Positions 3,459-37,343 are shown, counted from the stretch's first letter. The stretch is DNA of 38,962 nt from Planctomycetaceae bacterium (GCA_003506095.1 DNWZ01000159.1:1-38962); one strand, 5' to 3'. Program-made: numbers and translations. Notes: generated from the sequence alone by a model not told the origin.

Positions 3459-6074
3459 TTATTCCAACGAAGCCAGTCCCCCGCGTTCTACAATCTTAAG
3501 CAGTTCTTGTCCGCTCATGCGATGTGCCGCGTCGTGTGGGCATGCGTAAACGCAGCGGGGCTTGCCGTCAATGCTGCGGCAGAGGTCACAAGTTGTCGCC
3601 TTTTGTTGAATGACGGGTATCTTGCGTCCATTGCGTTCTTCAAAAACTGCCTTTCTTTTACCAGTCTTCGGATCAGCTTCTATCTTTGGAAATCCGTGCA
3701 TATTGATGTTTCCATAAGGGCAGTTTTGTGCGCAAAGCCCACAACCGATGCAATAATCCTCGATCTTGATCTCCAGTGAATTGCCATCTCGGTGAATGGC
3801 GTCAACAGGGCAACCGACTAGGCAATACGGGTCCATGCAGGAGCGACAACTGCTGGCGACCAGAAATTTATCAAAACGCAAACCGTCTCTCACAAGTCGT
3901 GTCACGCCGCCATGCGTGTCTGCGCAGGCTTTGGTGCATTCATCACACCGCGTGCATTTTTCTAAATCAAGAACCAGCAGGCTTTGCCCTAAAAACAAGC
4001 CTTGATCAATAAAGTCGTCTGTGCCGATCGCGTCTAACTGCTTTCGAATCGCGTAATCGCGTGCCAAGATCTCGTCGGCGACTTTCAGCATCGGTTCGAC
4101 AAGTGCAGGCAACTTTCTCAGCAATTCATGAAAGTCAGCCGCCTTGATTCGAATCAATTCGACATGGTCCAACGCCGCACAGGATGCTGTACGACGTCCG
4201 TCCGGGATCTTGTTGCGTCCAGGCACTTGGTCCGAATTGACCAGTTTTGTCAGTAGTCCGATTTCGCCAAAATAGCTACCCGGCGAAACATAGCCCATCA
4301 CGCGATCCGAAACGCCATACTTCTGGGTCACTTTGATGAAACCGAGCCGATTGATGTAAATCGCATCAGCGATCTCGCCTTGACGATAAATCGTTTGGCC
4401 AGGCTCAACGGTCAGCAACTCGACTCGATTGTTTAAAAAGTCGGCTGCTTCCTGACGCTGGTCCTCGGACAATCCTTGAAAGATTGGCAAAGATGTCAGT
4501 TGTCCGCGCAAGGTTCGCTTGCGATAAACCTGGTCCAAGAACTCGCGACTGATCGCATTTCTTTGAATCATATAAAGCACGTTGCGGCGGATCTCCACAA
4601 CCACCGAGTTTTCCTTGGCCACCACCGTTGCAGATCGCGGATATCGGTTCAAACAGGTCATTTCACCGATGATTACGTCTTCCGGGGTGATTTCAATCAC
4701 CGTGTCGTCTGACAATTCTGCGCCGTGCATGTCGCTCAATCGGGCCACGGTGGAATGTTTGGTTGCTCCACCCCCACCACCAAGCCAACGTAAAAGACCG
4801 AATCCTAATGGTTTTTTTGGTTTACCACGCTTGGATTGCAAAGTGACCGTGAAACGACCACTGACAATGACAAACGCCGTCGAACCGTACTCACCTTCGC
4901 GACACAAAACCTCTCCGGCTTTGAGTTGTCGAACCACAAAGGCGCCTTGATTGAACTGCACAAACTTTGGTGGCAATCCGGCAAACAATGGAATTGCTAA
5001 AATCTCACGCACATTCGTCGGCTTGTCGTGGCCTTCGGCCACCGCGGTTGATGCCAAGTATGACGGACGAAATTCGAGTGCACCGGTCGGACAGGAAATC
5101 ACACATTCGCCGCAGGAAACGCACGAACTTTTGCCCATGGGGTCATCAAGATCGAATCCGATATGGCTTTGGTAGCCCTTGCCAAAACGACCGATTACAT
5201 GATTCTCTTTCACATAGTTGCAGCCCCGTGAACACCGTCCACAAAGGATGCATTCTTCCAGATTGACAACAACCATTCGACTTGATTTATCAATCTGTGG
5301 CGGTGGCGGCGATTCAATCAGCCCGCTCAGATTCTTGGCCAGCATTGTCTTGGAGAATCGATTGGTCGATAGATTCAATCGCGATGCCAACGCGGCCAAC
5401 TCATTGCCATCCTCCGCCAACCGGGGCGACATCCGCCCCGTCGCGTTTATCGCCACCATTTCACTGCTACGTTGGGCCGGCAAATGATCGGCAACCAAAA
5501 GCTCCGTCAATAAACTGCATGCCTTCTTCACCCGCTGCGCAGCCGCAGGATCCGCCTTGCTGTTGATCGTATGGACTGCCATGCCATCGGAAACATGCTG
5601 AACGCACGAAGGGACAAGTTTGCTGCGGACGCCACGGCGAGTCTGCTCGACAGCCTCAACCATACAGACGCGACAGACGCCAACTGGTGGAAGGTGTTCG
5701 CGATGGCAAAGCGTTGGGATCGGATGGGCGTCACCAGCCTGCTGCACAAAAGCTTGGGTTGCAGCATCATAGATGGTGGTCGCGCGCGGAATCGCATTCC
5801 CCTCGGAGTCTCGTTGAATCGAGCCTTGAGAATCTCGCAGCGGTACCGCCTTTTTAACGACGACCTGGCGACCATCAATTGTTAAGCATACGTCGGTATC
5901 AAAGTCATCCGCAGTCGCTCGGCGAACCCGAATTAGGCGTCCATCAACGCTACGCGCAAACAGTCCCTCGTCGTCGTATGCCTTGCTTGTCTCGTCGCGA
6001 TCTGCAACCGCTGCGGCAAAGTTAATCGTTTGAGTCGCTAGGAGACGCTGGTCGCTAAAGTCTTTATTTTCCAT
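3459..6074 (-). CDS. Multidomain Fe-S protein: NuoG/HoxU-like N-terminal 2Fe-2S plus 4Fe-4S region, two tandem cyclic-nucleotide-binding (CNB) domains, and a C-terminal DmsB/HybA-like multi-4Fe-4S ferredoxin domain
   Basis: 2Fe-2S-like 'LCHREHLPPVGVCRVCMVE...PSCVQHV'. 4Fe-4S sites 'CILCGRCSRGC' and 'CVSCGECVISCP'. CNB1 phosphate-binding cassette 'IGEMTCLNRYPRSATVVA'; CNB2 'FGEIGLL...RRTASCAAL'. C-terminal sites 'CTRCDECTKAC', 'CRSCMDPYCLVGCP', 'CIGCGLCAQNCP' and 'CDLC...CVYACP'. I prefer the ATG at 6074 (MENKDF), preceded by GGGAGA, over the track start at 6116. It overlaps the upstream stop by 11 nt. Confidence 0.85.
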   Translation of the reverse strand: MENKDFSDQRLLATQTINFAAAVADRDETSKAYDDEGLFARSVDGRLIRVRRATADDFDTDVCLTIDGRQVVVKKAVPLRDSQGSIQRDSEGNAIPRATTIYDAATQAFVQQAGDAHPIPTLCHREHLPPVGVCRVCMVEAVEQTRRGVRSKLVPSCVQHVSDGMAVHTINSKADPAAAQRVKKACSLLTELLVADHLPAQRSSEMVAINATGRMSPRLAEDGNELAALASRLNLSTNRFSKTMLAKNLSGLIESPPPPQIDKSSRMVVVNLEECILCGRCSRGCNYVKENHVIGRFGKGYQSHIGFDLDDPMGKSSCVSCGECVISCPTGALEFRPSYLASTAVAEGHDKPTNVREILAIPLFAGLPPKFVQFNQGAFVVRQLKAGEVLCREGEYGSTAFVIVSGRFTVTLQSKRGKPKKPLGFGLLRWLGGGGGATKHSTVARLSDMHGAELSDDTVIEITPEDVIIGEMTCLNRYPRSATVVAKENSVVVEIRRNVLYMIQRNAISREFLDQVYRKRTLRGQLTSLPIFQGLSEDQRQEAADFLNNRVELLTVEPGQTIYRQGEIADAIYINRLGFIKVTQKYGVSDRVMGYVSPGSYFGEIGLLTKLVNSDQVPGRNKIPDGRRTASCAALDHVELIRIKAADFHELLRKLPALVEPMLKVADEILARDYAIRKQLDAIGTDDFIDQGLFLGQSLLVLDLEKCTRCDECTKACADTHGGVTRLVRDGLRFDKFLVASSCRSCMDPYCLVGCPVDAIHRDGNSLEIKIEDYCIGCGLCAQNCPYGNINMHGFPKIEADPKTGKRKAVFEERNGRKIPVIQQKATTCDLCRSIDGKPRCVYACPHDAAHRMSGQELLKIVERGGLASLE

Positions 6075-7884
6075 CGTATTCTCCCTGCGGTTGATTGCCC
6101 GATGATTGCGGACCATTGTTCGGACACTTCGACGCGACTAAGTGCGGAAAAAATCGAAACAACGATCGCACCGGATTGCTCGCCACCTGTCCCAATCCAC
6201 AAATGCTGGTCGCTTCCATCACTTCACTGAGTTCACGGACAGTGCTGCTGAAGATCGGAAGCTCGCTCAGTGCAACTCGCCCGGCGTCGATCCCGGTTGC
6301 CATCGCCGTGATTTTTTCGGATCCGATTCGACAAGGGACGCACTTGCCACACGATTCGTTACGGAAGAAACGACTGCAAGCTAATGCTTCGCTGACCAAA
6401 TCGGCTTGGTCGTTGTAGACCACGATTCCCGCCCCCAACATATAGCCCATCGTGCGCGACACGTTGATATCCATTGGCAAGTCGCGAATGTCGATTGTGG
6501 TCGTGCCTTCTGGGACAAACCGTTTTGCAAAGGATTGATTAAGCTCGGATACCGGGATTTTTGCGGGCCACAGACCGCCTGACGGCCCCGAAAGGGCCAC
6601 TGCCGCAATCAAACCGCCACGCATACCACCTGCGTATTCGTCGATCAGTTCTCCTAAAGTGATTCCGGTCGGAACCTCATACACACCCGGGCAAACGACA
6701 TCGCCACTGATCGAAAACAAGCGGCGACCTCGGGCTAAGTCTTTCTGGCCAGCGAGATCGAAAGGGCCAGTCTTTTGCCCCTCATCGCGGTACCATTTTC
6801 CGCTGTCACGATCAAGAATGGCTGGCACCCATGCAAACGTCTCAACATTGTTTAGCAGGGTCGGCTGATTCTGATATCCGTTTGTCATCAATTCGGGAGG
6901 TCGGTTTCTCGGCTCAGCCCTTTTGTCTTCCATCGCCTCGATCAATGCCGTCTGCTCACCACAGATGTAACCGCCCGGGCTCACAAAAACTTCTAAAAAG
7001 AACTTCTCCCCAGATCCAAGAATATTTTGACCCAGGATGCCCAGGTCATTCGCACGGTTAATCTCTGCTTGAAGGCGTTTAATCTGCTCGGGATACTCGT
7101 GACGAACATAAATCCAACCGCGTTGGGCACCGACCACCAAGCCGCCCAGGATCATCCCCTCGATCACGAGGTGGGGGAATCGCAGCAAAATCTCTCGATC
7201 TTTAAACGTTCCCGGTTCACTCTCGTCCGCATTGCAAACCAAGTATTTCGCCTTTCCCTCGGCCGCTAGAACATCGCCCCACTTAAGATACGTTCTGCCA
7301 CCGGCACCGCCCATTCCAAGCAAGCCAGCAGTCTCTAATGCCTTCAGCACACCCGCAGGATCGGGCGCTTTGAGATAGTTGCGAACTAATCGATAGTCGG
7401 GTGAGACCTGGGACGATCGATCGTAGATCTCCATTTGCCACTTCTCGGTTCCCTTGACGGTTCCCCTGGCATCGGAATCGGCCGATGGCCGGAGGCCACT
7501 GGTCGACTGGTCGATTGCCAAACGGAGCTCTTCTTCGGATCGCCCAGCAAATAATCTTTCATTGATCATTGCTGCAGGCGCACGATCACAGCGTCCCAGG
7601 CAGGATACCCCGCAAACTTCAACAGCCTCGCCGTAACGTTGTTTAGCATACTTTTCGATTCGTTCCGTCATCGTAACCGCGCCACCCCGATGACAGCTCA
7701 TGTCGCGACAGATGTGTACCGTAACTTTTGGCGGTGGCGTCGTTCGAAAATGAGGAAAGAATGAAACCAAAGATTGCACGCGATGCAGTGGTACATTCAA
7801 TACTTCAGCAACCTTCGTGAGGTCTTCACGAGTCAAATAGCCGCCGCGATTCTTCTGAAAACGATACAGCGTAGGAATAATCAT
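6064..7884 (-). CDS. NuoE-NuoF fusion (NAD(P)H-binding flavoprotein of complex I / HoxF / FdhB type: thioredoxin-like 2Fe-2S domain plus FMN/NADH/4Fe-4S domain)
   Basis: NuoE-like 'HICRDMSCH...CGVSCLGRCDRAP'. NuoF motifs 'GLLGMGGAGGRTYLKW', 'YLVCNADESEPGTFKDREIL', 'GGYICGEQTALIEAMEDKRAEPRNRPP' and the N3 cluster 'ESCGKCVPCRIG'. The ATG at 7884 lies 6 nt after the upstream stop. Confidence 0.9.
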   Translation of the reverse strand: MIIPTLYRFQKNRGGYLTREDLTKVAEVLNVPLHRVQSLVSFFPHFRTTPPPKVTVHICRDMSCHRGGAVTMTERIEKYAKQRYGEAVEVCGVSCLGRCDRAPAAMINERLFAGRSEEELRLAIDQSTSGLRPSADSDARGTVKGTEKWQMEIYDRSSQVSPDYRLVRNYLKAPDPAGVLKALETAGLLGMGGAGGRTYLKWGDVLAAEGKAKYLVCNADESEPGTFKDREILLRFPHLVIEGMILGGLVVGAQRGWIYVRHEYPEQIKRLQAEINRANDLGILGQNILGSGEKFFLEVFVSPGGYICGEQTALIEAMEDKRAEPRNRPPELMTNGYQNQPTLLNNVETFAWVPAILDRDSGKWYRDEGQKTGPFDLAGQKDLARGRRLFSISGDVVCPGVYEVPTGITLGELIDEYAGGMRGGLIAAVALSGPSGGLWPAKIPVSELNQSFAKRFVPEGTTTIDIRDLPMDINVSRTMGYMLGAGIVVYNDQADLVSEALACSRFFRNESCGKCVPCRIGSEKITAMATGIDAGRVALSELPIFSSTVRELSEVMEATSICGLGQVASNPVRSLFRFFPHLVASKCPNNGPQSSGNQPQGEYDGK

Positions 7885-7890
7885 GGTGCT

Positions 7891-10800
7891 TTAATTCGAC
7901 TCCACGGATTCGGATAACCGCTTGGTTAACTCGCGAAACTTAGCTATGTCAATGAATTCCGGGCTGTCGATGACCCATTCGCCAATCCGATCTTGGACGC
8001 GACGAAACTCAATCGCTTCGGCCATTTTGCCGAGGTAGGCTGCAACCTCATGTCGGTCGCTCGGAACTCTTCGGTCTCGAATCAATGCATGCGAACGGAG
8101 GTACCAATGTGACGCCTGATACCACGCACCGGTGATCGATGAATTGACACCCAACGGCGCAGCTGCTGGGGAATGGAAACGCGCCAATGATTTCATTTCG
8201 ACTTGCAGTGGACGCGGATCGGCCAGACGCGACAAGTATCTGCCGATGATCTCTTCGATACTAACAGTGGCTGGTTTTATTTGTTTGATATCCACAGCAC
8301 GCAGTCGTATCGTGTCCAGTGCTTTATTCATTGCAACGACATCCGACGGCCCTAAATATGCAAGCCCGTGCTCAATAAACTCAGCCAAAAGCGAGGGATG
8401 GGGCAACGGGTGTCCGTAGCTAGGGCGAACCGCAAAATTGGTGATCTTCAAATGATGATGGCATGCAAAGCAATCAAAGTCTGCAAGCTCCGGCCAAACA
8501 CTCGCCGTTAAAGAGGCGTCCGGCGATTCCAGCTGGGAATCGATTCGCCGCTGCGCCGTCAGCTGAATCGCGGCACGAATCGCAATCGCCTGAGCCGCCA
8601 AGAAACGTCGCAATTCAGACTCGTCCTCTAGCGACGGCAAACCATCTTGCGAACGATCCTCCACTGCATGCCGTGGCAGGCGACGCAAGGCAGACCAACC
8701 TTCAAATCGGAGTGCTGGGTGCCCCGCAGCAATCATGTCATGATTCATATCGCGAACCATTCCATCAGCGACCCGTGATCCCACGTGACAACGGACGCAG
8801 CCATCGATTCGTTTAACAAAATTTCGTGTTTCCCTCATCGAGCCCGAAACGGTCCAATCGTCACGAAGATGCGACTGAACCCAATTGCTTGCTGGTCCAT
8901 GGCACGCTTCGCACGAGACGCCTGCAAGGGCTTGGTGAGTCACTGTTTCGTTGTCCGTGCTGGCATTTTTTTCGTCGCTGGGCACGGCGAGTTCGGCCTG
9001 CATGGCGCCCTGAGCATCGATTGGGGAATGACAACTGTTACAGCGAGATCGCAGCACCTGTTCGAAGCGATCGGGTGAATCTCTAGCCCCGGGGTCCAGC
9101 GTCCAAACAATGCGTTTGCTCAATTGGCCTGAAAGGGTTAGCCCGGCGCGCGCGTGTGGGTCGAATGCTTCAAAAACGCTTTGACTGCTGGTCCAATCGG
9201 GATGGCTTCCGATAGCGCCGCTATGGCAGGTGCTGGTTCCACACGAGTCACTGCCGATCCACCGACCAGCAGATGACGTTAAACTCGAATGGCTTGAAGT
9301 CGCCGGTGGTTGTTTAGTGCCTGGCGACTGTGCTGATTGAGTGTTGACCAGGGATATGTCATGAATGCCGCCTTTGTCGTCCTGAGATTCAGAATCTAAC
9401 AGGCTTGCTTGCACCGGCGTTTGGATTGGCGATGTAGATCCATAAGAATGATAATCATGGCATGTTGTGCATCGGTCTGGCGCGTGATCGGATAAGCCGC
9501 CAAAGAGAGCTGCATGCGACTGGTTATTCGTAGAATTGGCTTCTTGCTGCGAGGCACGATGGCAGGGAGTGCATGAGGCGATCCCGAGTATCATTTTAAG
9601 ATCGCCTGGATTGAGCGTGATCAGTGGGTCCGGTGCAGGCTCGGTCGATGTAAAGTCTGTTTGCGCAGATTGCCCGGCTCCCGTGGTTTTTGCCAGCCAG
9701 CTTCGCAGCGCAACTCGTTCGGGGTCGGAGATCGACTGGGCATTCGGATCGGCTTGCGGATGACAGGCGATGCAAGTAACGCCGCGGTGCGCGCTATGAT
9801 CAAATCGTCCGGCACGCAGTCGAGGCTGAGGAATCCTCGGAACTGGCGCCGCTATTTCAACGTCTGTATTGATGTGACAAACACGACACTGTTGTGCAAC
9901 GCGGCTCAGCAGTAGTTCGGTGCGCTGGGCCCGCCCGTTTTCTTCTAGCGATTGGTCGTTTAAAGGTTGACGACTGCTAGGCGGGCTTGCATTAGAGCCT
10001 GGGACGCGGATCGGAAAACCGTCCGATTTCCAAAGCTGATCGCCCGTCAATTGACTAGCAGCCAACTGGCCCGAAATTGAATCTCGCATTGACGGCACCG
10101 CGACGCCGTGGGGGACGGCCCACTGGCCTTGGCGCTGGCCAGGAAGGGTTAAAGGATGGCAAGCAGCACAATGTTGGGTGTACTTAACCGGTGATGAACT
10201 TCGTCCCCATGCGTACTCACCCGACCGCTGAAGCCCCAATGATGACGATTGGAACTCATGGCAATCTGCGCATTGCAGTTGGACTGCTGCATCCAACGAT
10301 TGTCCGGGCCTTTGGTATTTTTCAACAAACTCTTTGGGCAATCGATCCAGTCGCATAGCACCTCGCTGGCCGGGCATGACCTGCCCCGGATTCATATGCA
10401 GGGCATGGTCAAACTCAATTCGTGGTGCATCCGCATTCTCTGGGTTAAGCTTTTGCAGTGAAGCAAAATCGCTGTGATCGGCCAGTGAAAACTGAGATAC
10501 ATTTACCGGCGGCTGCGAATCCGATTTTGTCGCACAAAACGCGGAAGTCTTTTCGTGGCACGAGACGCAAGCGTGGTTGAACGTGGGGATCAATTGACGA
10601 TCCCGTCCCAAGTGCTCGTCATGACAAACCGCACATCGTTGGTCTGCCAGCTTGCCAGCATCATTTAAAGCTGCGACATGAGGACCAACATTCTGATGAC
10701 AACTCTGGCATTTACTCGCTGTCGACCTGACCGCAGTGGAAGGTTCGATATGCCACGCGTCCGCAGCGATCGGCACGAAGTCAACATGACAGGCAGAGCA

Positions 10801-11031
10801 TTTTTGCTCAATCGACATGTGTGCAGTTGAAATGGGGCCAGTGCTCAAGTGTGATTGGCCAGCTGGGGCTAAGCCAACCCACGCTAAATAACAACCAGCG
10901 ATCACAATTGCAGCGGCTGTTGCGAGCCAACGCCAATAATAAGTCGAACTACGATACTTGTGGTAATCCAGTCGGATTCGCTGGGCGCGTGTCTTGCCGG
11001 TGTACTCGGCGGGGTCGATCTGGTTTGACAT
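7891..11031 (-). CDS. Membrane-anchored multihaem cytochrome c (14 CxxCH plus 1 CxxxxCH, 15 predicted haem sites)
   Basis: N-terminal anchor 'YYWRWLATAAAIVIAGCYLAWVGLAP'. Haem motifs in order: CSACH, CQSCH, CAVCH, CVSCH, CADCH, CAACH, CRVCH, CIACH, CTPCH, CTTCH, CGTSTCH (9223-9243), CNSCH, CEACH, CVRCH, CFACH. The C-terminal roughly 450 aa is paralogous to the two cytochromes at 14.5-18.2 kb. Confidence 0.9.
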   Translation of the reverse strand: MSNQIDPAEYTGKTRAQRIRLDYHKYRSSTYYWRWLATAAAIVIAGCYLAWVGLAPAGQSHLSTGPISTAHMSIEQKCSACHVDFVPIAADAWHIEPSTAVRSTASKCQSCHQNVGPHVAALNDAGKLADQRCAVCHDEHLGRDRQLIPTFNHACVSCHEKTSAFCATKSDSQPPVNVSQFSLADHSDFASLQKLNPENADAPRIEFDHALHMNPGQVMPGQRGAMRLDRLPKEFVEKYQRPGQSLDAAVQLQCADCHEFQSSSLGLQRSGEYAWGRSSSPVKYTQHCAACHPLTLPGQRQGQWAVPHGVAVPSMRDSISGQLAASQLTGDQLWKSDGFPIRVPGSNASPPSSRQPLNDQSLEENGRAQRTELLLSRVAQQCRVCHINTDVEIAAPVPRIPQPRLRAGRFDHSAHRGVTCIACHPQADPNAQSISDPERVALRSWLAKTTGAGQSAQTDFTSTEPAPDPLITLNPGDLKMILGIASCTPCHRASQQEANSTNNQSHAALFGGLSDHAPDRCTTCHDYHSYGSTSPIQTPVQASLLDSESQDDKGGIHDISLVNTQSAQSPGTKQPPATSSHSSLTSSAGRWIGSDSCGTSTCHSGAIGSHPDWTSSQSVFEAFDPHARAGLTLSGQLSKRIVWTLDPGARDSPDRFEQVLRSRCNSCHSPIDAQGAMQAELAVPSDEKNASTDNETVTHQALAGVSCEACHGPASNWVQSHLRDDWTVSGSMRETRNFVKRIDGCVRCHVGSRVADGMVRDMNHDMIAAGHPALRFEGWSALRRLPRHAVEDRSQDGLPSLEDESELRRFLAAQAIAIRAAIQLTAQRRIDSQLESPDASLTASVWPELADFDCFACHHHLKITNFAVRPSYGHPLPHPSLLAEFIEHGLAYLGPSDVVAMNKALDTIRLRAVDIKQIKPATVSIEEIIGRYLSRLADPRPLQVEMKSLARFHSPAAAPLGVNSSITGAWYQASHWYLRSHALIRDRRVPSDRHEVAAYLGKMAEAIEFRRVQDRIGEWVIDSPEFIDIAKFRELTKRLSESVESN

Positions 11032-11061: not shown

Positions 11062-12063
11062 CTACCAATAACGAAGCGCAAATACAATGTGCGCGAGAAG
11101 AAGCACGCACAGTCCGACGGAAAGACCGATGTGATACGGCAGCCACATGTGCAGCCAGTGGTGGAGGCGTTTTTGTAAACTGAATTGCCGCCTCTGGTCG
11201 GTCAATCTTTCCAACGGGCCGATCACACGCTCGGCATCAGCCGAACAGGCCTGTCGCAACATCCCGAACCAGCCCGAAGCACGAATCGGGTCGCCGAATA
11301 CCCGGCCGGATGTTACACCATCCAGCAGGAACGGCTTCAATTCATCATAGGCATTCCATAACGAACGCGAGTCGTCTTGTTCGGCGGTGGCAGCCCTGCT
11401 TTCCTGATAACCCTCCCGTCGTCGTCCAGCTTCCCGGGGTGCGCCAATAACAATCATTCGTGTCATTTGCACTTCGGGGTCGCTGCCAAGTAATTCACGG
11501 AATCGCGTCATTTCGCCAATGCCTAATTGCTGCGTCATCACCGCATCGCGAGTGCCACAGGTTGCATTGAGCAACTGATCCGCTTCCAGGACAATCGATC
11601 GAGAAATATTTTCGATCTCACCATAAATCGTTTCACCTGGGACCTGTTTCAGCAACATTCGTGGGATCATGTTCTGTAACGCTAGGCCGATCGCCCCGCT
11701 GGCCACCGTCAACACCAAGGCCAAAATCAAAAGTGTCGACAACCATCCGCCCCAGTGGAATCCGGAATGAACAATCGCAATCGGCAAGCAGACGATTCCG
11801 AACCAAATGTGAGCGGAAAGCCAATACTTGACGCGAACCAATCTCATTCGCCGCAGTGCTTTGCGTGGCCACAGCCCCATCTCGAAGAAGATGATCATTG
11901 CCGCTACCGACCCGAGAACCAATCCTGGCAGACTGCCACCACCTAGCAATCTACCTGCGAGCCAAGATTCCGCGAGGTACCAAGCAGTTAGGCCCAAAAA
12001 AAGTATCATCGCTAGCGTTATCGCAACGGCATGCATTCGCCAACTAGATCGATCAATCAACAT
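11062..12063 (-). CDS. Integral membrane protein with about 5 TM helices and His-rich helices; possible b-haem or other electron-transfer membrane subunit
   Basis: Hydrophobic segments 'AVAITLAMILFLGLTAWYLA', 'GLVLGSVAAMIIFFEMGLW', 'WLSAHIWFGIVCLPIAIVHSGFHW', 'LSTLLILALVLTVASGAIGLAL' and a C-terminal 'HHWLHMWLPYHIGLSVGLCVLLLAHIVFAL'. The ATG is at 12063, and a 30-nt spacer separates it from the cytochrome gene. Confidence 0.7.
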   Translation of the reverse strand: MLIDRSSWRMHAVAITLAMILFLGLTAWYLAESWLAGRLLGGGSLPGLVLGSVAAMIIFFEMGLWPRKALRRMRLVRVKYWLSAHIWFGIVCLPIAIVHSGFHWGGWLSTLLILALVLTVASGAIGLALQNMIPRMLLKQVPGETIYGEIENISRSIVLEADQLLNATCGTRDAVMTQQLGIGEMTRFRELLGSDPEVQMTRMIVIGAPREAGRRREGYQESRAATAEQDDSRSLWNAYDELKPFLLDGVTSGRVFGDPIRASGWFGMLRQACSADAERVIGPLERLTDQRRQFSLQKRLHHWLHMWLPYHIGLSVGLCVLLLAHIVFALRYW

Positions 12064-12206: not shown

Positions 12207-12258
12207 AAAGGGGGCTGACCCTTTGAAGGCAACTCGCCGGAGAGGGTCAGCCCCCTTT
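12207..12258 (-). terminator. GC-rich perfect 16-bp inverted repeat (AAAGGGGGCTGACCCT / AGGGTCAGCCCCCTTT) with a 20-nt loop; possible terminator or attenuator between the cyclase gene and the downstream operon
   Basis: The arms at 12207-12222 and 12243-12258 were read directly. The right arm contains the last codons and the TGA (12247-12249) of the cyclase gene. Only a short T-run follows on either strand. Confidence 0.35.
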
Positions 12259-14241
12259 TCGAATAGGCTCTAAATCCCAAATCGTATCCGTCTGGCTGGA
12301 AGGATCCGTTAGCGCCCTGGCCGACTCAACCAACAGACGCGCACTGGGGCGATCATCCTTATAGTTTTGAACTAATCGCCCTAATCGATGAACCGATTCA
12401 CCTGGCCTGCCTGCCTCATAGTCAGCCAATGCAGATTCATATTCATCTTTCAGCAGCAACCATTGTGGGGTTGCAATTGAAACACATTGATAGACCTCGA
12501 CAGGTTGCCGGATTCCACCAAGTCGAATCCTTGACAGCCGGCGAAGGTTTTCGCGTGTTGACAAGCTTCCCACCGTTGCTGCGGACACGATACATTGCAC
12601 TCCCATTTGCTTACAGGCCCCCTGCAAGCGACTTCCGATGTTCACCGTGTTTCCCAGGACTCCGTATTTGAACTTCAGCCTGCTTCCAACATTACCGACC
12701 CGTGCCGGGCCGCTATTGATCCCGATGCCTATATCCAGTTCAATCCCCAACTGTTCACGCCATTTGTCTCTAAGGTCATCAGTAACAACCAGCATTTGTC
12801 GTGCTGCTGCGATCGCGCGTGCGGCATGGTCAGCCTGCGCTTCAGGCGCTCCCCACATCGCAAAAAGCTCGTCGCCAACATAGTCGACCAATACACCATC
12901 CTCGTCGACCACACATTGGCTTAAGTCGGAAAGGACATCGTTGATCAGTGCGATTGTCCGTTCCGGACTAAACATCTCGGAAATGGCACTGAACCCGCGC
13001 ACATCACAAAATAAAACCGAAACATCTGTATCCCGACCGACCAGCATTTCAGGACGTTTGGCCAACATCGAGGCGACACGAGGTGAGAAGAATTCGGATA
13101 GGTTGGCATGCGATCGCTCAGCCGCTTGCCGTGCCATCCCTACTGCGACCGCCGCAGCCAGTGTTTCAGCCAATAGACCTTCCAGCTCGGTGACTCGGTG
13201 GTCTCGCCCTGCACGCTGAACCCATCGCTCACCATATAAAACCGCAGCAATGCGGCCGTGTCGGTCGATCACTGGCGCAGCGACCACACTGTGGGATGGC
13301 CCAAACGCTTGATCGGGAGCTTCGCGTCCAAGGTCAAAAATTTGCGTTGTCGTCAATTCGAGAACCCGATTGAGAACCGTTGAATTGACTGTTGGCCTTT
13401 GTTTTTGCGAGACCGGTTGGGAAAGTTGCTCACCGCGCGAGACCCATTTGACCCGTCGTCCGCTTAACGTCCCCGGGACTCCTCGAATCTCGGACAGGCC
13501 GCCACTTGGATCAGACAGCCCCGTTGGCAAATCGGCAATCTCAAAGACAAGTGAACTCAATACCGACTGACTGTTAGCAGTATTGGAAGGCATTGCGCTG
13601 GATTGCTGAGGAACCATCAATACAGCACGATCTAAGTAGTCGTCCGATCCAGCCGCTTCGGTGACGGCCCGCAACGCCTTCCTCAGCAGGCGAACCACGT
13701 TCAAATGATCCAGCGGCCCTTGCCCCCCGTCTAGAGGGCGAATCAACAGTGCCATGCTCGACTGAATATCAAGCTCACCCAACGTGTCGCGACGCGAAAC
13801 CGCACTGTCCCCTCGCGGCAGCGTGTCTCTGCGAGCATAAATGCCATTGGGTTGATCGTTGTCCCATTGTGGGGGTGAGCCCGACGTTTCCGGAACAATT
13901 CTTAAACAATGGCTTCGATACAGAAGGATTTCAGTTGCGGCAGTCAATTTCAACGACTTGGAACCACCGGGCGGCACGCGACACTCCGGATCGGCAACGC
14001 AAACGTCACGAGTCCGATGGATATTGTCGATTCGAACCGTATCGACATCTAAAGCGTGAATCACAAACCAACGTCGAGGAATCGTCGTTATATCTGTCGA
14101 CGCGATTAGAAATCGATTCGCCTCCCCCTCCCGTGGTTCGCCTGCCTGCTGGCGACCGATTTCTAAGTGAGAAATCAATTCGACCCGGCTAAGCTCTGTA
14201 ATGTCTTGAAACAACTGAACTAGAATGCCCAAACCTTCCAC
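12247..14241 (-). CDS. Class III adenylate/guanylate cyclase with N-terminal FHA-like and central GAF-like regions
   Basis: Cyclase homology domain (about 12472-13029): 'VSVLFCDVRGFSAISEMF', 'LVDYVGDELFAMWGAP', 'IGIGINSGPARVGNVGS', 'KYGVLGNTVNIGSRLQG'. The GAF-like stretch is 'VVAAPVIDRHGRIAAVLYGERW'. The start codon at 14241 is GTG, so the exact start is uncertain. Confidence 0.88.
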   Translation of the reverse strand: MEGLGILVQLFQDITELSRVELISHLEIGRQQAGEPREGEANRFLIASTDITTIPRRWFVIHALDVDTVRIDNIHRTRDVCVADPECRVPPGGSKSLKLTAATEILLYRSHCLRIVPETSGSPPQWDNDQPNGIYARRDTLPRGDSAVSRRDTLGELDIQSSMALLIRPLDGGQGPLDHLNVVRLLRKALRAVTEAAGSDDYLDRAVLMVPQQSSAMPSNTANSQSVLSSLVFEIADLPTGLSDPSGGLSEIRGVPGTLSGRRVKWVSRGEQLSQPVSQKQRPTVNSTVLNRVLELTTTQIFDLGREAPDQAFGPSHSVVAAPVIDRHGRIAAVLYGERWVQRAGRDHRVTELEGLLAETLAAAVAVGMARQAAERSHANLSEFFSPRVASMLAKRPEMLVGRDTDVSVLFCDVRGFSAISEMFSPERTIALINDVLSDLSQCVVDEDGVLVDYVGDELFAMWGAPEAQADHAARAIAAARQMLVVTDDLRDKWREQLGIELDIGIGINSGPARVGNVGSRLKFKYGVLGNTVNIGSRLQGACKQMGVQCIVSAATVGSLSTRENLRRLSRIRLGGIRQPVEVYQCVSIATPQWLLLKDEYESALADYEAGRPGESVHRLGRLVQNYKDDRPSARLLVESARALTDPSSQTDTIWDLEPIRKGG

Positions 14242-14582
14242 CCTCTTCGAAGAATCACCACGCTAAACCGACAGAATCAGAAAAAACGCTTCGTTTTAGC
14301 AATAATTTCGTTGATCATCGATGTTCAGTTTGAATGCTTCTCCTAGCTTAACTAAACTGAGTTGTCGGATCCGCCATGCCACATTAGTAATGCGCCATTT
14401 TTATTCGATTTGTTTTTTTGTCAGATAAAGCCCGATTCGACGGGCGTTTGCTCCAAACCATTCTTGGGATATCGAATAATTAAAGCGTCTATCATCCGTT
14501 GTGCATCGCCCGTCTGTTTTGAGTGTCATTTCGTCAAGTTGTTTCGACAGGTTGTTGGGTCTATCAATTGCAAGCGTATAGC

Positions 14583-16367
14583 ATGAGCCAGTGCAACCAA
14601 GAATCGACCAACTGCTCGATTGACTCAATCCTATCTTGTTTTTTGCTAGAACCGTGGGCAGAGCTAACTCGATTGAGGTCGACAGATCGATTGTGCCGCC
14701 CGAGGGTCGTGATCGCTTGCTTGCTGATGCCTCTGTTTTTGTTGTTCGCTGAATCGGTCGCTCACGGCCAGAATCCGCACAGCTCTACTGTAGCATCTTC
14801 GGTGGTGGCGCTTTATCGAGTCGATCTTGAGCCGCTTGCCGCAACCAGTTGTTCGGCTTCGGCATGCCATGGAGGTCCCCGGCCAGGGATCGTCCAGCCG
14901 TCTTCCGCTGGTCAGTCCGCTTATGGACTGTGGCTTGAACGCGACCCGCACGCTCGTTCTTGGCAAACCATTTGCAGCTCTGAAAGCGTTGCAATGATGA
15001 CACGCTTGGGCATCTTACGTGGTGAACAAATTGTTGACCAAGCTGGTTTTGACAATTGCATGGCTTGCCACAACAGCCATCGCAGTGAGTCCGGGCCTGC
15101 GGCCACCACGACTGATCAGCGCGGCTTATCGATAAGCGATAATCGTCGAGCCCCGTCGTCTTCAGAGTTTCGATTTCCTCGGCATACGGAAGGAGTCGGG
15201 TGTGCAGGCTGCCACGGTCCGGCAGAACAGTGGGTGAACGAGCACTATTTGGCATCTTGGCGACCTCAAGACGCGATTGAGCAGGGCTTCGTTCCCAATG
15301 ATGATTTGTTAACACGAGCGAGAATGTGTGCATCTTGCCATGTTGGTGATCACGATCGTGATATGAATCACGACATCATTGCCGCTGGTCACCCCGCACT
15401 GCGATTCGAGATGGCATCCCACCACAGCCGATTGCCGAAACATTGGCGCGATGATCAAGCCGGTGACCTTGCTGGCTTTGAGGCTAAGCTTTGGGCCGCC
15501 GGGGCTGTGGCGTCCGCCGATGCCTGGCTAGCGTTGCAACAAGGTCGCGCTGGCGGAAAGACGGCGGTCAGCACATGGCCCGAATTCGCCGCCAATGATT
15601 GTTCATCATGCCACCAGTCGCTGCGTCTCAACAGCGATCGCGATCCGCTATCGGATCCCCATCGCCGCGGTGCCGCTAAGATCGCTCGTTGGGACGTGGG
15701 CGCGTTGCAGTTGTGGGCCAGGGCGAGTCACGATCAATCCGACGATGACTATCGCGTCACCCCATCCATGCTGCTGCACCAACTCGATTTGGTACAGGCG
15801 ACCATTGAGGTGATGCACTCACCCGATCGCGCGGCATTCGGTCGGGTGTCAATGGATTTGAGACAATCGTTACCCAAGCGGTTTCAATCGCAAGCTTTTG
15901 CTCCCAACACGCGTGGCAATCCCAGTCTCGGTTCTTACAGCACGCGGCCGCCAGATCCGATTTTTGCTCCGCAGTTGAGCGATTTACTCATGCGATCGGC
16001 CGGTTCGGATATCGCAACAGAAACCTGGGAAGCCGCAGGCCAGGTTTACCTTTTGATCGCAGCATCTCGCTACGAGTGGACAAAGTCCAATGGAAGCCAA
16101 TTGCATTCGCTCGCCGGATCCATTCGTCGCGGATTGTCGCTGCCACCGGAAATCGATTCTCCTCGCTATTCGCTCTCATCTCCGTTGGGCTCGGAACTGA
16201 CACGCGAACAGATTCGCCAACTGGTTGAACAAGTTCTTCGTACGTTAGACTCGACGAAGCCATCACGTCCTCATTCGGTCGAATCATTGCTCAATCACCT
16301 CACGCCTGCCGCTGTCGATAGGCGACCGGCTTTAATCAAGGATGCGTCGCATGCCAGCGTCCGCTAA
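14583..16367 (+). CDS. Secreted pentahaem cytochrome c, paralogue of the C-terminal module of the 15-haem protein
   Basis: Signal-like 'RPRVVIACLLMPLFLLFAESVAHG'. Haem sites CSASACH (CxxxxCH, 14850-14870), CMACH, CAGCH, CASCH, CSSCH. Family motif 'CHVGDHDRDMNHDIIAAGHPALRFE'. The track start at 14523 is GTG; the first ATG is at 14583. Confidence 0.85.
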   Translation: MSQCNQESTNCSIDSILSCFLLEPWAELTRLRSTDRLCRPRVVIACLLMPLFLLFAESVAHGQNPHSSTVASSVVALYRVDLEPLAATSCSASACHGGPRPGIVQPSSAGQSAYGLWLERDPHARSWQTICSSESVAMMTRLGILRGEQIVDQAGFDNCMACHNSHRSESGPAATTTDQRGLSISDNRRAPSSSEFRFPRHTEGVGCAGCHGPAEQWVNEHYLASWRPQDAIEQGFVPNDDLLTRARMCASCHVGDHDRDMNHDIIAAGHPALRFEMASHHSRLPKHWRDDQAGDLAGFEAKLWAAGAVASADAWLALQQGRAGGKTAVSTWPEFAANDCSSCHQSLRLNSDRDPLSDPHRRGAAKIARWDVGALQLWARASHDQSDDDYRVTPSMLLHQLDLVQATIEVMHSPDRAAFGRVSMDLRQSLPKRFQSQAFAPNTRGNPSLGSYSTRPPDPIFAPQLSDLLMRSAGSDIATETWEAAGQVYLLIAASRYEWTKSNGSQLHSLAGSIRRGLSLPPEIDSPRYSLSSPLGSELTREQIRQLVEQVLRTLDSTKPSRPHSVESLLNHLTPAAVDRRPALIKDASHASVR

Positions 16368-23995: not shown

Positions 23996-24153
23996 CAGTG
24001 TCTCGCCTGCAGAAAGATCGATCGGAACCGTGTCATGCAACGGCTATGTCGGGTATCATGAAAAGGCGTGACGTATGAATTATTGAACGTCACCCATCAC
24101 TCATGCGCATCATGCTCTCGTCCAACCGCATCATAATGTCCGACGGTGTTATT

Positions 24154-26307: not shown

Positions 26308-26329
26308 TCGCTTAGCCTGATGTGGTCGC

Positions 26330-33213: not shown

Positions 33214-33741
33214 TTACTGCGTATCACTCTCTGCCGCCGCTTGTAAGGTTTTGACCATGGGTGGTTCATAAGCGACAAGAATCAGACGTTTTATCGTGGG
33301 GCATTGTGGAAGAGTGCTATGGATCGTTCGCACAGCAATCGCGGCTGCCTGTTCAGGTGGATAAGCATAGATCCCGCAACTGATCGCCGGAAACGCGATC
33401 GATTTCAGGTTGTGCGACTGGGCCAACAGCATCGATTCACGATAGCACGACGCTAACAATTTCGCTTCGCCACCACCGCCACCCCGCCAAATCGGACCGA
33501 CGGTGTGAATCACAAACCGCGATGGCAATCGAAACGCTGGCGTGATTCGCGACTCGCCTGTCGGGCATCGCACACCGGGCCTAAGCTCGTCCATCGCTCG
33601 ACATGCCTCCAGCAGTTCGGGACCAGCGGCACGATGGATCGCCCCATCGACCCCACCGCCGCCGAGCATCCGTTCGTTAGCCGCGTTGACAATCACGTCG
33701 ACTTGCAACTTTGTAATGTCGCCGCTGATGACTTCAATCAA
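33214..33741 (-). CDS. MacroD/YmdB-type macrodomain protein (ADP-ribose / O-acetyl-ADP-ribose hydrolase)
   Basis: 'GDITKLQVDVIVNAANERMLGGGGVDGAIHRAAGPELLEAC', 'VIHTVGPIW', 'SIAFPAISCGIYAYP'. The start is TTG at 33741, 4 nt after the PARP stop, with GAGG 9 nt upstream. Confidence 0.9.
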   Translation of the reverse strand: MIEVISGDITKLQVDVIVNAANERMLGGGGVDGAIHRAAGPELLEACRAMDELRPGVRCPTGESRITPAFRLPSRFVIHTVGPIWRGGGGGEAKLLASCYRESMLLAQSHNLKSIAFPAISCGIYAYPPEQAAAIAVRTIHSTLPQCPTIKRLILVAYEPPMVKTLQAAAESDTQ

Positions 33742-33745
33742 TTTT

Positions 33746-37341: not shown

Positions 37342-37343
37342 CG

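Follow-up and report, generated by a model that had tools for sequence, protein, structure and literature searches.

Gene organisation of the locus

The window, i.e. the whole stretch of 38,962 nt analysed here (Planctomycetaceae bacterium, GCA_003506095.1 DNWZ01000159.1:1-38962), carries on its minus strand a gene (3459..6074) for an 871-aa protein in which Fe-S modules flank a tandem of cyclic-nucleotide-binding (CNB) domains, as judged from the ORF, its translation, Pfam and NCBIfam matches, homologues and start context. An ORF scan of the window places the gene in a minus-strand ORF at 3459..6116. Its start is the ATG at 6074, which is preceded by GGGAG; from this start the gene shares 11 nt with the end of the gene upstream of it, which encodes a NuoE-NuoF fusion, and the two are translationally coupled. 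The nearest homologue, P0001, likewise has 871 aa, and 119 full-length homologues with 53–94% identity were found in many assemblies, with domain order and length unchanged. Residue conservation was read from an alignment of 120 closely related sequences (A1) and from 150 representatives of the wide family that are pairwise at most 50% identical. At the 79 best matching genome loci nearly the whole protein is covered, mostly residues ~34–862.

The Fe-S/CNB protein is real and widely conserved in planctomycetes. The earlier note had named a chimeric ORF, due to assembly or a frameshift, as an outcome that would refute its reading. Such a chimera would join an Fe-S gene to a CNB gene, and in some lineages the two parts are indeed separate genes; however, the order and length shared by 119 independent full-length homologues and the coverage at 79 loci leave this explanation practically no chance, and it was discarded. 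The splits at the related loci L080 and L083 are bounded by other-frame stop codons and are therefore genuine alternative gene structures rather than errors.

The NuoE-NuoF fusion (6064..7884, minus strand, 606 aa) has an NADH/FMN site, a [2Fe-2S] and a [4Fe-4S] site according to Pfam and NCBIfam, and full-length PDB matches to MeFDH1 beta (7e5z_B) and HoxF (5xf9_A). Its gene lies immediately upstream of the Fe-S/CNB gene at 66/67 related loci. Next on the minus strand is a gene (7891..11031) for a membrane-anchored multihaem cytochrome c of 1046 aa with 14 CxxCH motifs, one CxxxxCH motif and an N-terminal TM helix. A homologue is present at 33/36 long related loci, and the N-terminus resembles the decahaem protein of the ptd-like locus L084 (see below). 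Beyond it lies a gene for a five-TM membrane protein (11062..12063, minus strand, 333 aa), present at 34/36 long related loci and predicted from a TM scan and its His pairs to be a di-haem cytochrome b. The genes for this protein and for the large cytochrome belong to the same operon as the Fe-S/CNB gene. In each of the pairs, H85/H99 and H311/H325, 13 residues separate one His from the other, and the four His are invariant in 46 homologues; across its members the family gives weak DUF4405, Ni_hydr_CYTB and Ferric_reduct matches. We infer both the haem b ligation and the membrane topology of this protein from its sequence. Divergently transcribed on the plus strand (14523..18180) are two multihaem cytochrome c genes encoding proteins of 614 aa (4+1 haem motifs) and 612 aa (5 motifs), which neighbour the cluster in most related loci and are similar to the small cytochrome of L084. 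A 587-aa secreted protein encoded at 18207..19970 gave zero family matches.

A class III nucleotide cyclase of 664 aa (12247..14241, minus strand; catalytic domain at residues 405–585, Pfam Guanylate_cyc 4.4e-20; the N-terminal ~400 aa carry no domain assignment) is encoded on the same strand as the operon, 183 nt upstream of it. Related cyclases adjoin the cluster at 15/79 loci, often as the very next gene. A cyclase near the cluster is found at only ~20–28% of loci, and most loci have none within 10 kb. Full-length orthologues of the L080 cyclase were found at 9 loci at least, with 34–46% identity and at differing positions around the cluster. In addition, a class II cNMP phosphodiesterase is present in L080 and lies directly downstream in L048. 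This co-localisation of cyclase and phosphodiesterase genes, seen in other Planctomycetota too, lends independent support to a putative link with cyclic nucleotides.

Domain architecture of the Fe-S/CNB protein

Based on Pfam, NCBIfam and the Cys motifs, the order along the polypeptide is one [2Fe-2S] cluster, two [4Fe-4S] clusters, the tandem CNB domains and a four-cluster ferredoxin. The three-part architecture claimed in the earlier note, including the domain order that it proposed to confirm by profile searches, is thus real, and it is conserved in the 119 homologues. The protein contains 28 cluster Cys in total, all conserved across A1 together with both phosphate-binding cassettes, and conservation extends to the 150 representatives with the counts given below. 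An AF2 model was obtained with a mean pLDDT of 76.9 and a pTM of 0.69. Comparisons with NCBIfam, the PDB and Foldseek returned no characterised family or solved structure with the same architecture. In this respect the presumed novelty holds for characterised families, but a CNB protein with 4Fe-4S clusters, PtdE, is already on record in a preprint.

The [2Fe-2S] domain (5550..5894, minus strand, residues 61–175) matches Pfam Fer2_4 at residues 117–171. Its ligands C123, C134, C137 and C157 are 4/4 invariant in A1, and the domain can be aligned with the N-termini of FdsA, HydA and NuoG. A helical linker follows (5289..5549, minus strand, residues 176–262), which has a single Cys (C186) and the vestige of a His-ligated cluster site, 'ELLVADH'. 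H197 of this motif is invariant in A1 and the Cys ligands are missing there; with zero Cys between 186 and 275, the His-ligated [4Fe-4S] motif HxxxCxxCxxxxxC (N5 / FS4C) is absent. The aligned segment of M. extorquens FDH1 alpha reads 'ELLVADQ'. The 2x[4Fe-4S] ferredoxin domain (5067..5288, minus strand, residues 263–336; ~268–336 by Pfam) has CxxCxxCxxxC motifs at 275 and 318, giving the ligand sets C275/278/281/285 and C318/321/324/328, and matches the PDB entries 7vw6_A, 7t2r_A and 7q4v_A with E-values of 1e-18 to 1e-21.

By Foldseek, the N-terminal module superimposes on the N-termini of FdsA and HydA with an rmsd of 3–5 Å. Its best partial NCBIfam matches are the [FeFe]-hydrogenase A6 N-terminus (1e-33) and HoxU (1e-27), and the equivalog cut-offs of NCBIfam were missed (HoxU 97.1 bits vs 333, NuoG 49.1 vs 470). 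On this evidence the module is a relative of HoxU/NuoG and not an orthologue. The NuoG/HoxU-like N-terminus described earlier holds for the [2Fe-2S] and 2x[4Fe-4S] parts; it is not a complete NuoG/HoxU module, however, as the His-ligated [4Fe-4S] cluster has been lost. Of the region assigned to it (about 5472-5894 and following), 5472–5894 holds only the [2Fe-2S] domain and the vestigial His site; the two [4Fe-4S] clusters lie at nt 5067–5288.

CNB1 with its B/C helix occupies 4491..5012 (minus strand, residues 355–528) and CNB2 with a long C-helix 4029..4490 (minus strand, residues 529–682), both delimited by Pfam, AF2 and Foldseek. With 95.3 bits (E 2.2e-27), the cNMP_binding profile PF00027 clears its curated cut-off of 27.5; its 3 matching stretches span the two domains, the best stretch in CNB2 being 555–653. 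In the AF2 model of the pair, a beta-barrel is seen with helical N- and C-terminal elements, among them the CNB2 helices 645–654 and 656–682. The top Foldseek matches of the pair are the PKA-R and PKG tandems (probability 1.00, E ~1e-15, ~320 columns), which bears out the CNB fold. No CRP/FNR-type HTH was found after the CNB pair among the Pfam matches; the ferredoxin follows there.

In CNB domains that bind ligand, the standard signature is Gly-Glu ... Arg-Ser/Thr-Ala. The phosphate-binding cassette of CNB1, GEMTCLNRYPRSAT (4626..4667, minus strand, residues 470–483), fits this signature as GEMxxLxxxPRSAT; G470, E471, R480, S481, A482 and T483 are invariant in A1, and among the 150 representatives G is found in 116/117, E in 114/117 and R in 115/122. 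The cassette of CNB2 (4182..4271, minus strand, residues 602–631) reads FGEIGLL, an insertion and GRRTAS. Here F602 and G603 are invariant in A1 and E604, R628, T629 and A630 are conserved in at least 90%, with G in 147/150, E in 133/150 and R in 110/150 (73%) representatives. The cassette Glu and Arg, which the earlier note saw kept in both domains, are also retained among the close homologues. The CNB2 insertion is also present, but measures ~15 aa and not ~17, since the G-to-R spacing is 24 as compared to 9–11 in cassettes without it. Because of this insertion and the Arg present in 110/150 representatives, CNB2 may not bind ligand in every member. The Gly-rich insertion described in CNB1 ('LLRWLGGGGGATKH') proved to be part of a variable segment of the beta-barrel (4746..4841, minus strand, residues 412–443) with a pLDDT below 50 at 417–441. 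Across the family this loop spans 22 to 124 aa, and here it is ~35–40 aa longer than in the shortest relatives.

The C-terminus is a four-cluster [4Fe-4S] ferredoxin of the HycB/HydN/DmsB type (3516..3986, minus strand, residues 697–853) with 16 Cys in four motifs, in agreement with the original description. Pfam places the Fer4 clusters at 699–860. The first three motifs begin at C707, C743 and C775 and are found in 146–148/150 representatives; the fourth (C829/832/841/845) is found in 122–126/150. The PDB matches are HycB3 (7qv7_A) and HycB (7z0s_B), over ~165 residues. HydN and DmsB are the best partial NCBIfam matches, both below the cut-off (52.9 bits vs 260 and 48.2 vs 214, respectively). 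Neither a Mo/W/Ni catalytic subunit nor an NrfD/DmsC-type anchor was found in the window or in related loci.

Fusion variants and relation to Ptd

The picture of one electron wire interrupted by CNB domains applies to the window protein, but is not the feature that is conserved. In L080 and L083, one polypeptide carries the HoxU-like part and another the CNB-CNB-ferredoxin part, and the fusion states encountered are [EF][U][CNB-Fd], [EFU][CNB-Fd], [EF][U-CNB-Fd] and [EFU-CNB-Fd]. These varied states tie NuoEF, HoxU and the CNB-ferredoxin together as one functional unit. Since the two parts are separate elsewhere, and the CNB-ferredoxin stands alone in L084, it is more apt to regard the CNB pair as an N-terminal regulatory module belonging to the polyferredoxin, which is here fused to a diaphorase subunit. 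These variants mark the CNB-CNB-ferredoxin half as an independent evolutionary unit.

According to a preprint (bioRxiv 10.1101/2023.11.21.568154), PtdE is a CNB protein with 4Fe-4S clusters, to which two such clusters are assigned, encoded in the multihaem-cytochrome operon ptdABCDEFG. Its neighbours are the ferric-reductase-like PtdF and tetra- and deca-haem cytochromes (PtdD, PtdG), it is reported in Planctomycetes MAGs too, and the function of the family is termed 'completely unknown' (bioRxiv 10.1101/2023.11.21.568154). In the locus L084, called ptd-like solely by gene order and domain content, the CNB-ferredoxin gene lies beside genes for a decahaem cytochrome and for a membrane protein resembling ferric reductases. 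Its stand-alone product, P0235, is a CNB-CNB-ferredoxin of 506 aa that is 34% identical over the C-terminal 532 aa of the window protein (E 2e-95). Residues 355–853 of the window protein consist, as in PtdE, of CNB domains followed by a 4Fe-4S ferredoxin, and the membrane protein of 333 aa has a homologue in the ferric-reductase-like protein encoded at L084 (E 1e-16, four His aligned). Homology extends to the cytochromes of the two loci. By way of this ptd-like locus, the CNB-CNB-ferredoxin half is judged to be homologous to PtdE.

There are differences as well. Compared to PtdE, the window protein has an extra N-terminal HoxU-like module with [2Fe-2S] and 2x[4Fe-4S] clusters, and four Cys motifs are found in the sequences analysed here as opposed to the two 4Fe-4S clusters of the preprint. 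With regard to the ptd operon, the PtdB porin was not identified in the window and the large cytochrome has ~15 haems, not 10. No NuoEF or HoxU gene is annotated within the stretch of L084 that was read, and in the window cluster NuoEF and the HoxU-like module appear to take the input role.

Proposed mechanism and alternative explanations

The reading that we favour, with confidence that goes about half way, is that the Fe-S/CNB protein is the cytoplasmic Fe-S subunit of a Ptd-like, quinone-independent conduit from NADH to periplasmic cytochromes, which is controlled by cyclic nucleotides at the cluster junction. NADH would give up its electrons to the FMN of the fused NuoE-NuoF protein, and these would travel via the HoxU-like [2Fe-2S] and two [4Fe-4S] clusters to the C-terminal polyferredoxin with its four [4Fe-4S] clusters. 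From there, they would pass to the di-haem b membrane protein, the ~15-haem membrane-anchored periplasmic cytochrome c and further multihaem cytochromes. The PKA-R-like CNB tandem would sit at the junction of the NADH-side and the membrane-side cluster chains and bind the cyclic nucleotide made by the co-localised class III cyclase, and a conformational or docking change of the tandem would decide whether the two chains are coupled. We infer the direction of electron flow, cyclic-nucleotide binding and, above all, gating from sequence data. Several points speak against this reading: the two Fe-S modules may be in contact whatever the state of the CNB domains, CNB2 may not bind ligand in every member, a cyclase is close by at a minority of loci, and the split-gene variants show that covalent insertion in one chain is not required.

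The most specific version, in which ligand binding moves the four-cluster ferredoxin into or out of tunnelling distance of the NADH-side clusters and thereby switches a respiratory-type wire, is more tentative, and we lean somewhat against it. If true, such a switch would turn an electron outlet from NADH to the periplasm on or off in milliseconds, with no need for transcription. It would be the first case of an Fe-S chain gated by a second messenger, and the Ptd-like multihaem systems of several phyla would have this type of control in common.

An unlikely alternative is that electrons flow constitutively and that the CNB pair is a scaffold or docking module unresponsive to nucleotides, joining the Fe-S modules or docking onto the membrane cytochrome. 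The large disordered insertion in CNB1, the cassette insertion in CNB2, the CNB2 Arg conserved in just 73% of the wide family and the lack of a cyclase within 10 kb at most loci are consistent with this. However, near-invariant phosphate-contact residues in CNB1 are hard to explain without ligand binding, and orthologous cyclases and phosphodiesterases recur beside the cluster.

The signal might also run in reverse, which we regard as rather improbable. The redox state of the flanking Fe-S clusters would then alter how tightly the CNB domains hold cNMP, or their conformation, and the cNMP network would thereby be informed about NADH/NAD+ or the status of the respiratory chain, for example by cNMP buffering or by action on a neighbouring cyclase, phosphodiesterase or kinase. 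The position of the CNB domains between redox centres would suit such a role, as would the invariant C391 and C474 (cassette helix) of CNB1, the near-invariant C632 of CNB2, and the cyclase, phosphodiesterase and Ser/Thr kinase (L083) found as neighbours. On the other hand, the Fe-S/CNB protein has no output domain, C391 may be merely a structural residue of the barrel, and its tight linkage, within the operon, with all parts of an electron path points to electron transfer. Moreover, we know of no precedent for a CNB domain acting as a redox-state reporter.

A Pycsar-like anti-phage pair of cyclase and Fe-S/CNB protein, with an effector that collapses redox metabolism upon infection, is very improbable and disfavoured. 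In PADLOC, the cyclase weakly matches PycC (7.8e-16), the CNB1 cassette region weakly matches PycTIR effectors (4.4e-13), and a retron type XIII system is reported elsewhere in the window. The two weak matches are limited, however, to the generic class III cyclase fold and a generic cassette, and the protein has neither a TIR domain nor a pore-forming TM effector domain. At almost every related locus examined, the gene is a core member of a conserved respiratory operon with NuoEF and the membrane and multihaem cytochromes; the cyclase is absent from most of these loci, and the cluster does not show the patchy, island-like spread of defence systems.

Comparison with known systems

The [2Fe-2S] and 2x[4Fe-4S] motifs are like those of the diaphorase modules HoxFU (NAD-reducing hydrogenases), MeFDH1 (Fdh1B and the N-terminus of Fdh1A; 7vw6, 7e5z) and NuoEFG (complex I), but the window protein has lost the His-ligated [4Fe-4S] cluster (N5 / FS4C) and, in place of a catalytic hydrogenase or molybdopterin domain, has the CNB tandem. 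The interleaved 16-Cys pattern of four motifs is shared with HycB, HydN, DmsB and HybA. In contrast to these, the window ferredoxin is preceded by a CNB tandem, stays below every NCBIfam cut-off and has as partners NuoEF, a five-TM predicted di-haem b protein and multihaem cytochromes.

In the Hmc and Tmc complexes of sulfate reducers, an Fe-S protein on the cytoplasmic side is combined with cytochrome b in the membrane and multihaem cytochrome c in the periplasm, and systems of the NOX or ferric-reductase type export electrons from NAD(P)H to the outside. The cluster is alike in parts, namely the cytoplasmic input, the bis-His di-haem bundle and the extracytoplasmic haem acceptors, whereas its subunits come from different families. 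To our knowledge, neither type of system has a cyclic-nucleotide sensor.

With PKA-R and PKG, the window protein shares a tandem of CNB domains with a long B/C helix, and the sequences match too. It differs in the insertions in both CNB domains, in an identity of only 16–21% and in lacking a dimerisation/docking domain, an inhibitor sequence and a partner kinase. The PKA-R tandem changes between an extended and a compact form upon cAMP binding, and a movement of this type could couple or uncouple the two flanking modules.

Gene and domain organization

In the window, the Fe-S/CNB protein is encoded by an ORF on the minus strand (3459..6116). The start of the gene is likely the ATG at 6074, since it is preceded by a GGGAG motif, gives an 11-nt overlap with the upstream stop codon and yields 871 aa, the length of P0001, the closest homologue among the matches listed (94% identity, 871 aa). 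Pfam assigned a Fer2_4 [2Fe-2S] domain (residues 117-171), a 2x[4Fe-4S] ferredoxin region (residues ~268-336), cNMP_binding (E 2.2e-27) in three stretches representing two domains, CNB1 and CNB2, and a further Fer4 region (residues 699-860), all on the minus strand. The domain order claimed in the earlier note is thereby reproduced. A CRP/FNR-type regulator was ruled out, as Pfam found no HTH.

The cysteine pattern corresponds to one [2Fe-2S] cluster, with C123, C134, C137 and C157 as ligands, and six [4Fe-4S] clusters, whose motifs begin at Cys 275, 318, 707, 743, 775 and 829. The N-terminus had been called NuoG/HoxU-like, which holds for its [2Fe-2S] and two [4Fe-4S] clusters, but the His-ligated [4Fe-4S] cluster of NuoG, HoxU and HydA is absent from the protein, with no Cys between residues 186 and 275. 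All sub-feature coordinates were verified against the translated sequence. A vestige of this site is found in the motif 'ELLVADH', of which H197 is invariant in the homologue alignment; the aligned segment in M. extorquens FDH1 alpha, the closest solved relative of this N-terminal module, reads 'ELLVADQ'. NCBIfam gave partial, sub-threshold matches to the [FeFe]-hydrogenase A6 N-terminus, HoxU, NuoG, HydN and DmsB. A genuine HoxU or NuoG orthologue was ruled out by these scores together with the lost His cluster.

Predicted structure and conservation

An AlphaFold2 model based on a 120-sequence alignment (mean pLDDT 76.9, pTM 0.69) shows two beta-barrel CNB domains with a 22-residue connecting helix (507-528); a second helix, of 27 residues (656-682), runs on to the C-terminal ferredoxin. 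In a Foldseek search of the PDB, PKA regulatory subunits and PKG aligned with the CNB pair through their tandem CNB-A/B (E ~1e-15, ~320 columns), which supports a CNB fold for the CNB-like regions. The N-terminal module matched the N-terminal parts of HydA hydrogenase subunits and of NAD-dependent formate dehydrogenases (rmsd 3-5 A, ~280 columns). PDB sequence and fold searches returned per-domain matches only, and no solved chain with the whole architecture. Both insertions described earlier are present. That in the CNB2 phosphate-binding cassette measures ~15 aa rather than ~17, and the Gly-rich one in CNB1 proved to be a piece of a variable loop, ~35-40 aa longer than that of the shortest relatives, which AlphaFold2 predicts with low confidence.

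A search of 5.8 billion proteins yielded at least 119 full-length homologues among the matches listed (808-904 aa, 53-94% identity), from Rubripirellula, Novipirellula, Rhodopirellula, Roseiconus, Aureliella and many uncultured Planctomycetaceae and Pirellulaceae. Most of those listed have all four domain kinds, Fer2_4 being absent from some precomputed Pfam lists. Carriers in culture include Rubripirellula lacrimiformis, Roseiconus nitratireducens JC645, Rhodopirellula sallentina SM41 and Tautonia sociabilis GM2012. Among species-representative genomes, 567 stretches coding for a relative were detected. In the best 79 of these 567 loci almost the whole protein is covered, and every one belongs to the Planctomycetota (Pirellulales, Isosphaeraceae/Tautonia and Gemmatales). 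The survey proposed in the earlier note shows the architecture to be carried by many Planctomycetota.

In the alignment of listed homologues, conservation is complete or reaches at least 90% at every one of the 28 cluster cysteines, and likewise at G470, E471, R480, S481, A482 and T483 of the CNB1 cassette. The same applies to F602 and G603 of CNB2, with E604, R628, T629 and A630 at least 90% conserved. Across 150 representatives sharing at most 50% identity, the CNB1 cassette retains G in 116/117, E in 114/117 and R in 115/122 sequences; the CNB2 cassette is less conserved (G 147/150, E 133/150, R 110/150). We consider it probable that CNB1 binds a cyclic nucleotide. That the CNB pair is instead a scaffold blind to the nucleotide seems unlikely, given the near-invariance of the ligand-contact residues.

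Three further conserved cysteines are found in or beside the CNB domains: C391 (4902-4904, minus) in a strand and C474 (4653-4655, minus) in the cassette helix 'GEMTCL' of CNB1, and C632 (4179-4181, minus) directly after the CNB2 cassette. All three are fully or almost fully conserved in close homologues and frequent in more distant relatives, and a redox role is possible. They bear on a reversed signal, in which the redox state would tune cNMP binding. Such a signal is without precedent and we regard it as improbable, but the conservation of C391 and C474 (both invariant) and of C632 (nearly so) calls for an explanation.

Operon and related loci

A tight operon on the minus strand ends with the Fe-S/CNB gene. 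The first gene encodes a 333-aa membrane protein (11062..12063), followed after 30 nt by that of a 1046-aa cytochrome c (7891..11031) with 14 CxxCH motifs, one CxxxxCH motif and an N-terminal TM anchor. After another 6 nt comes the gene of a 606-aa NuoE-NuoF fusion (6064..7884), which overlaps the Fe-S/CNB gene by 11 nt; this fusion matches the M. extorquens FDH1 beta subunit and HoxF over its full length. Apart from partial NuoE and NuoF matches, no NCBIfam equivalogs were found for the operon members. A promoter/terminator scan gave fewer sites than in shuffled sequence and was therefore uninformative on the operon boundaries.

Five TM helices are predicted for the 333-aa membrane protein. 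Its histidines H85/H99 and H311/H325 form two pairs, the partners of each separated by 13 residues, and all four are invariant among 46 homologues. Members of the family show weak matches to DUF4405 and Ni_hydr_CYTB and, in one case, to Ferric_reduct (3.4e-6), all of which we take to be di-haem b membrane families. Based on the His spacing, the weak Pfam matches and homology to a Ferric_reduct-matching relative, the protein is predicted to be a transmembrane di-haem cytochrome b; a PDB profile search with it returned noise only. According to the positive-inside rule, its 170-aa loop would lie on the cytoplasmic side, where the polyferredoxin could dock.

At 183 nt upstream of the operon, on the same strand, lies the gene of a 664-aa class III nucleotide cyclase (12247..14241, minus; Guanylate_cyc 4.4e-20). 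Its N-terminal ~400 aa have no family match, and its substrate-specifying residues, read by eye, seem to follow neither the typical ATP pattern nor the typical GTP one. Two multihaem cytochrome genes (14523..18180) are divergent from the operon. A 587-aa protein (18207-19970, minus) with a signal-like N-terminal segment and no Pfam or NCBIfam match might be a candidate outer-membrane or porin-like component of the system; its homologues are near the cluster in a few loci (L018, L021, L059 and L060).

Of the 67 related loci with sufficient upstream sequence, 66 have NuoEF immediately upstream. The membrane protein is present in 34, and the large cytochrome in 33, of the 36 loci that span 20 kb or more, either upstream or convergent downstream. 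The Fe-S/CNB protein is very probably a genuine subunit of the electron conduit proposed below. To read it as a Pycsar-like defence effector would rely on PADLOC matches, which are generic only, and is contradicted by the conservation of the core operon, making it highly improbable.

Within the best 79 of 567 loci, a cyclase homologue occurs in the flanks of 15, and directly follows the Fe-S/CNB gene in L018, L026, L036, L039, L052, L054 and L058. The cyclase of L080 has full-length orthologues (34-46% identity) at varying positions in L018, L031, L036, L039, L040, L058, L065, L069 and L071. A class II cNMP phosphodiesterase is found within the L080 cluster and immediately downstream in L048. 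Therefore, enzymes that make and degrade cNMP recur with the cluster, which supports a cNMP link, short of proof. In L080 (2669-6009; 18933-19703), besides the class II phosphodiesterase, an NAD kinase lies between the cyclase and NuoEF, and in L083 (11635-13818) a Ser/Thr protein kinase immediately follows the CNB-ferredoxin gene.

Elsewhere in the window, a 662-aa reverse transcriptase (PADLOC RT_XIII, E 3.6e-154) and an adjoining 517-aa protein (SWIM_XIII, E 4.5e-150) are encoded at 35380-38897 (minus) and together resemble a retron-like defence pair of type XIII. Immediately downstream (33214-35341, minus), a 531-aa protein with WGR and PARP catalytic domains and a 175-aa Macro-domain protein, for neither of which PADLOC gave a match, form an ADP-ribosylation writer/eraser pair adjoining the defence system. 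Large surface- or scaffold-type proteins are encoded at 20102-32944. One carries FG-GAP, Big_9, DUF11, cadherin and dockerin domains and is 2204 aa long; the others are a WD40 protein (1312 aa) and a VWA protein (734 aa).

The CNB-CNB-ferredoxin half as a separate unit

Residues 340-871 were searched against 1.84 billion representatives (E <=1e-30), resulting in 680 clusters. The window has the structure [NuoEF][HoxU-CNB-CNB-Fd], with Fd for the four-cluster ferredoxin; L080 has [NuoEF][HoxU][CNB-CNB-Fd] and L083 has [NuoE-F-HoxU][CNB-CNB-Fd]. Both splits are bounded by stop codons in the other frame, so these are genuine gene structures, and each break lies exactly where the HoxU ferredoxin domain has ended, ahead of the first CNB1 helix. 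P0207 (1483 aa), found on a single contig only, combines NuoE, NuoF, HoxU-like, CNB and ferredoxin parts in one protein, P0142 (1058 aa) adds a C-terminal NUDIX domain to the Fe-S/CNB protein, and CNB-CNB-Fd occurs alone among the representatives. The CNB-CNB-ferredoxin half is an evolutionary unit of its own. That the ORF is an assembly or frameshift chimera, a concern of the earlier note, is practically negligible in view of the full-length homologues, their alignment, the best 79 loci and the stop-bounded splits in L080 and L083.

One stand-alone form, P0235 in L084, is 34% identical end to end to the C-terminal half of the window protein (E 2e-95) and keeps both cassettes, the second without the insertion. 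Its gene lies between those of a ferric-reductase-like membrane protein and two cytochromes, a small c-type one and a decahaem one, and these neighbours are homologous to the membrane protein and cytochromes of the window. This gene order is consistent with the ptdABCDEFG operon (bioRxiv 10.1101/2023.11.21.568154), which was reported in Alpha- and Gammaproteobacteria, Nitrospirales and Planctomycetes and described as having a 'completely unknown' function. For a CNB and 4Fe-4S protein with NuoF, polyferredoxin or Planctomycetes, this preprint was the only published mention found.

Proposed mechanism and comparison with known systems

The conserved gene set holds a full series of cofactor-binding motifs, from an NADH/FMN site through the seven Fe-S clusters of the Fe-S/CNB protein to a predicted di-haem membrane protein and periplasmic multihaem cytochromes. 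Electrons derived from NADH would leave the cytoplasm via NuoEF, the Fe-S/CNB protein, the membrane protein and periplasmic cytochromes, bypassing quinone. The CNB tandem is placed where electrons would leave the diaphorase-side clusters and enter the polyferredoxin, a location taken by the catalytic domain in the enzymes homologous to the N-terminal module. In PKA regulatory subunits, tandem CNB domains go from extended to compact on ligand binding. A similar movement here would join or part the two cluster chains, and in the split forms ligand-dependent docking would do the coupling or uncoupling. Whether cyclic-nucleotide binding controls electron flow, as the earlier note suggested, is a tentative proposal to which we give an even chance or slightly less.

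All domains of the Fe-S/CNB protein belong to known families. No characterised family matched the whole protein, in agreement with the earlier note, but the CNB-polyferredoxin part is already in print once, within an uncharacterised operon. No description was found in the literature of a HoxU-like fusion fed by NuoEF, of an operon near-universal among the Planctomycetota examined or of recurring cyclase and phosphodiesterase neighbours, nor any proposal of a second messenger acting at a defined Fe-S chain junction.

With three soluble domains of well-understood types and standard ligand-contact residues, the family is a compact test case. The gating hypothesis is sharp and directly testable, the spectroscopic read-out being the clusters reducible by NADH with and without cNMP. 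The family also gives a first means of approaching the function of two poorly understood kinds of gene cluster, the multihaem cytochrome clusters that are very abundant in Planctomycetota and the 'Ptd' operons of marine oxygen-deficient-zone bacteria, and suggests that both are regulated NADH-to-periplasm electron outlets around the quinone pool. To our knowledge, the regulation of electron-transport chains works mainly through transcription, supercomplex assembly or covalent modification, and no Fe-S electron wire is known in which a second messenger sets the continuity allosterically.
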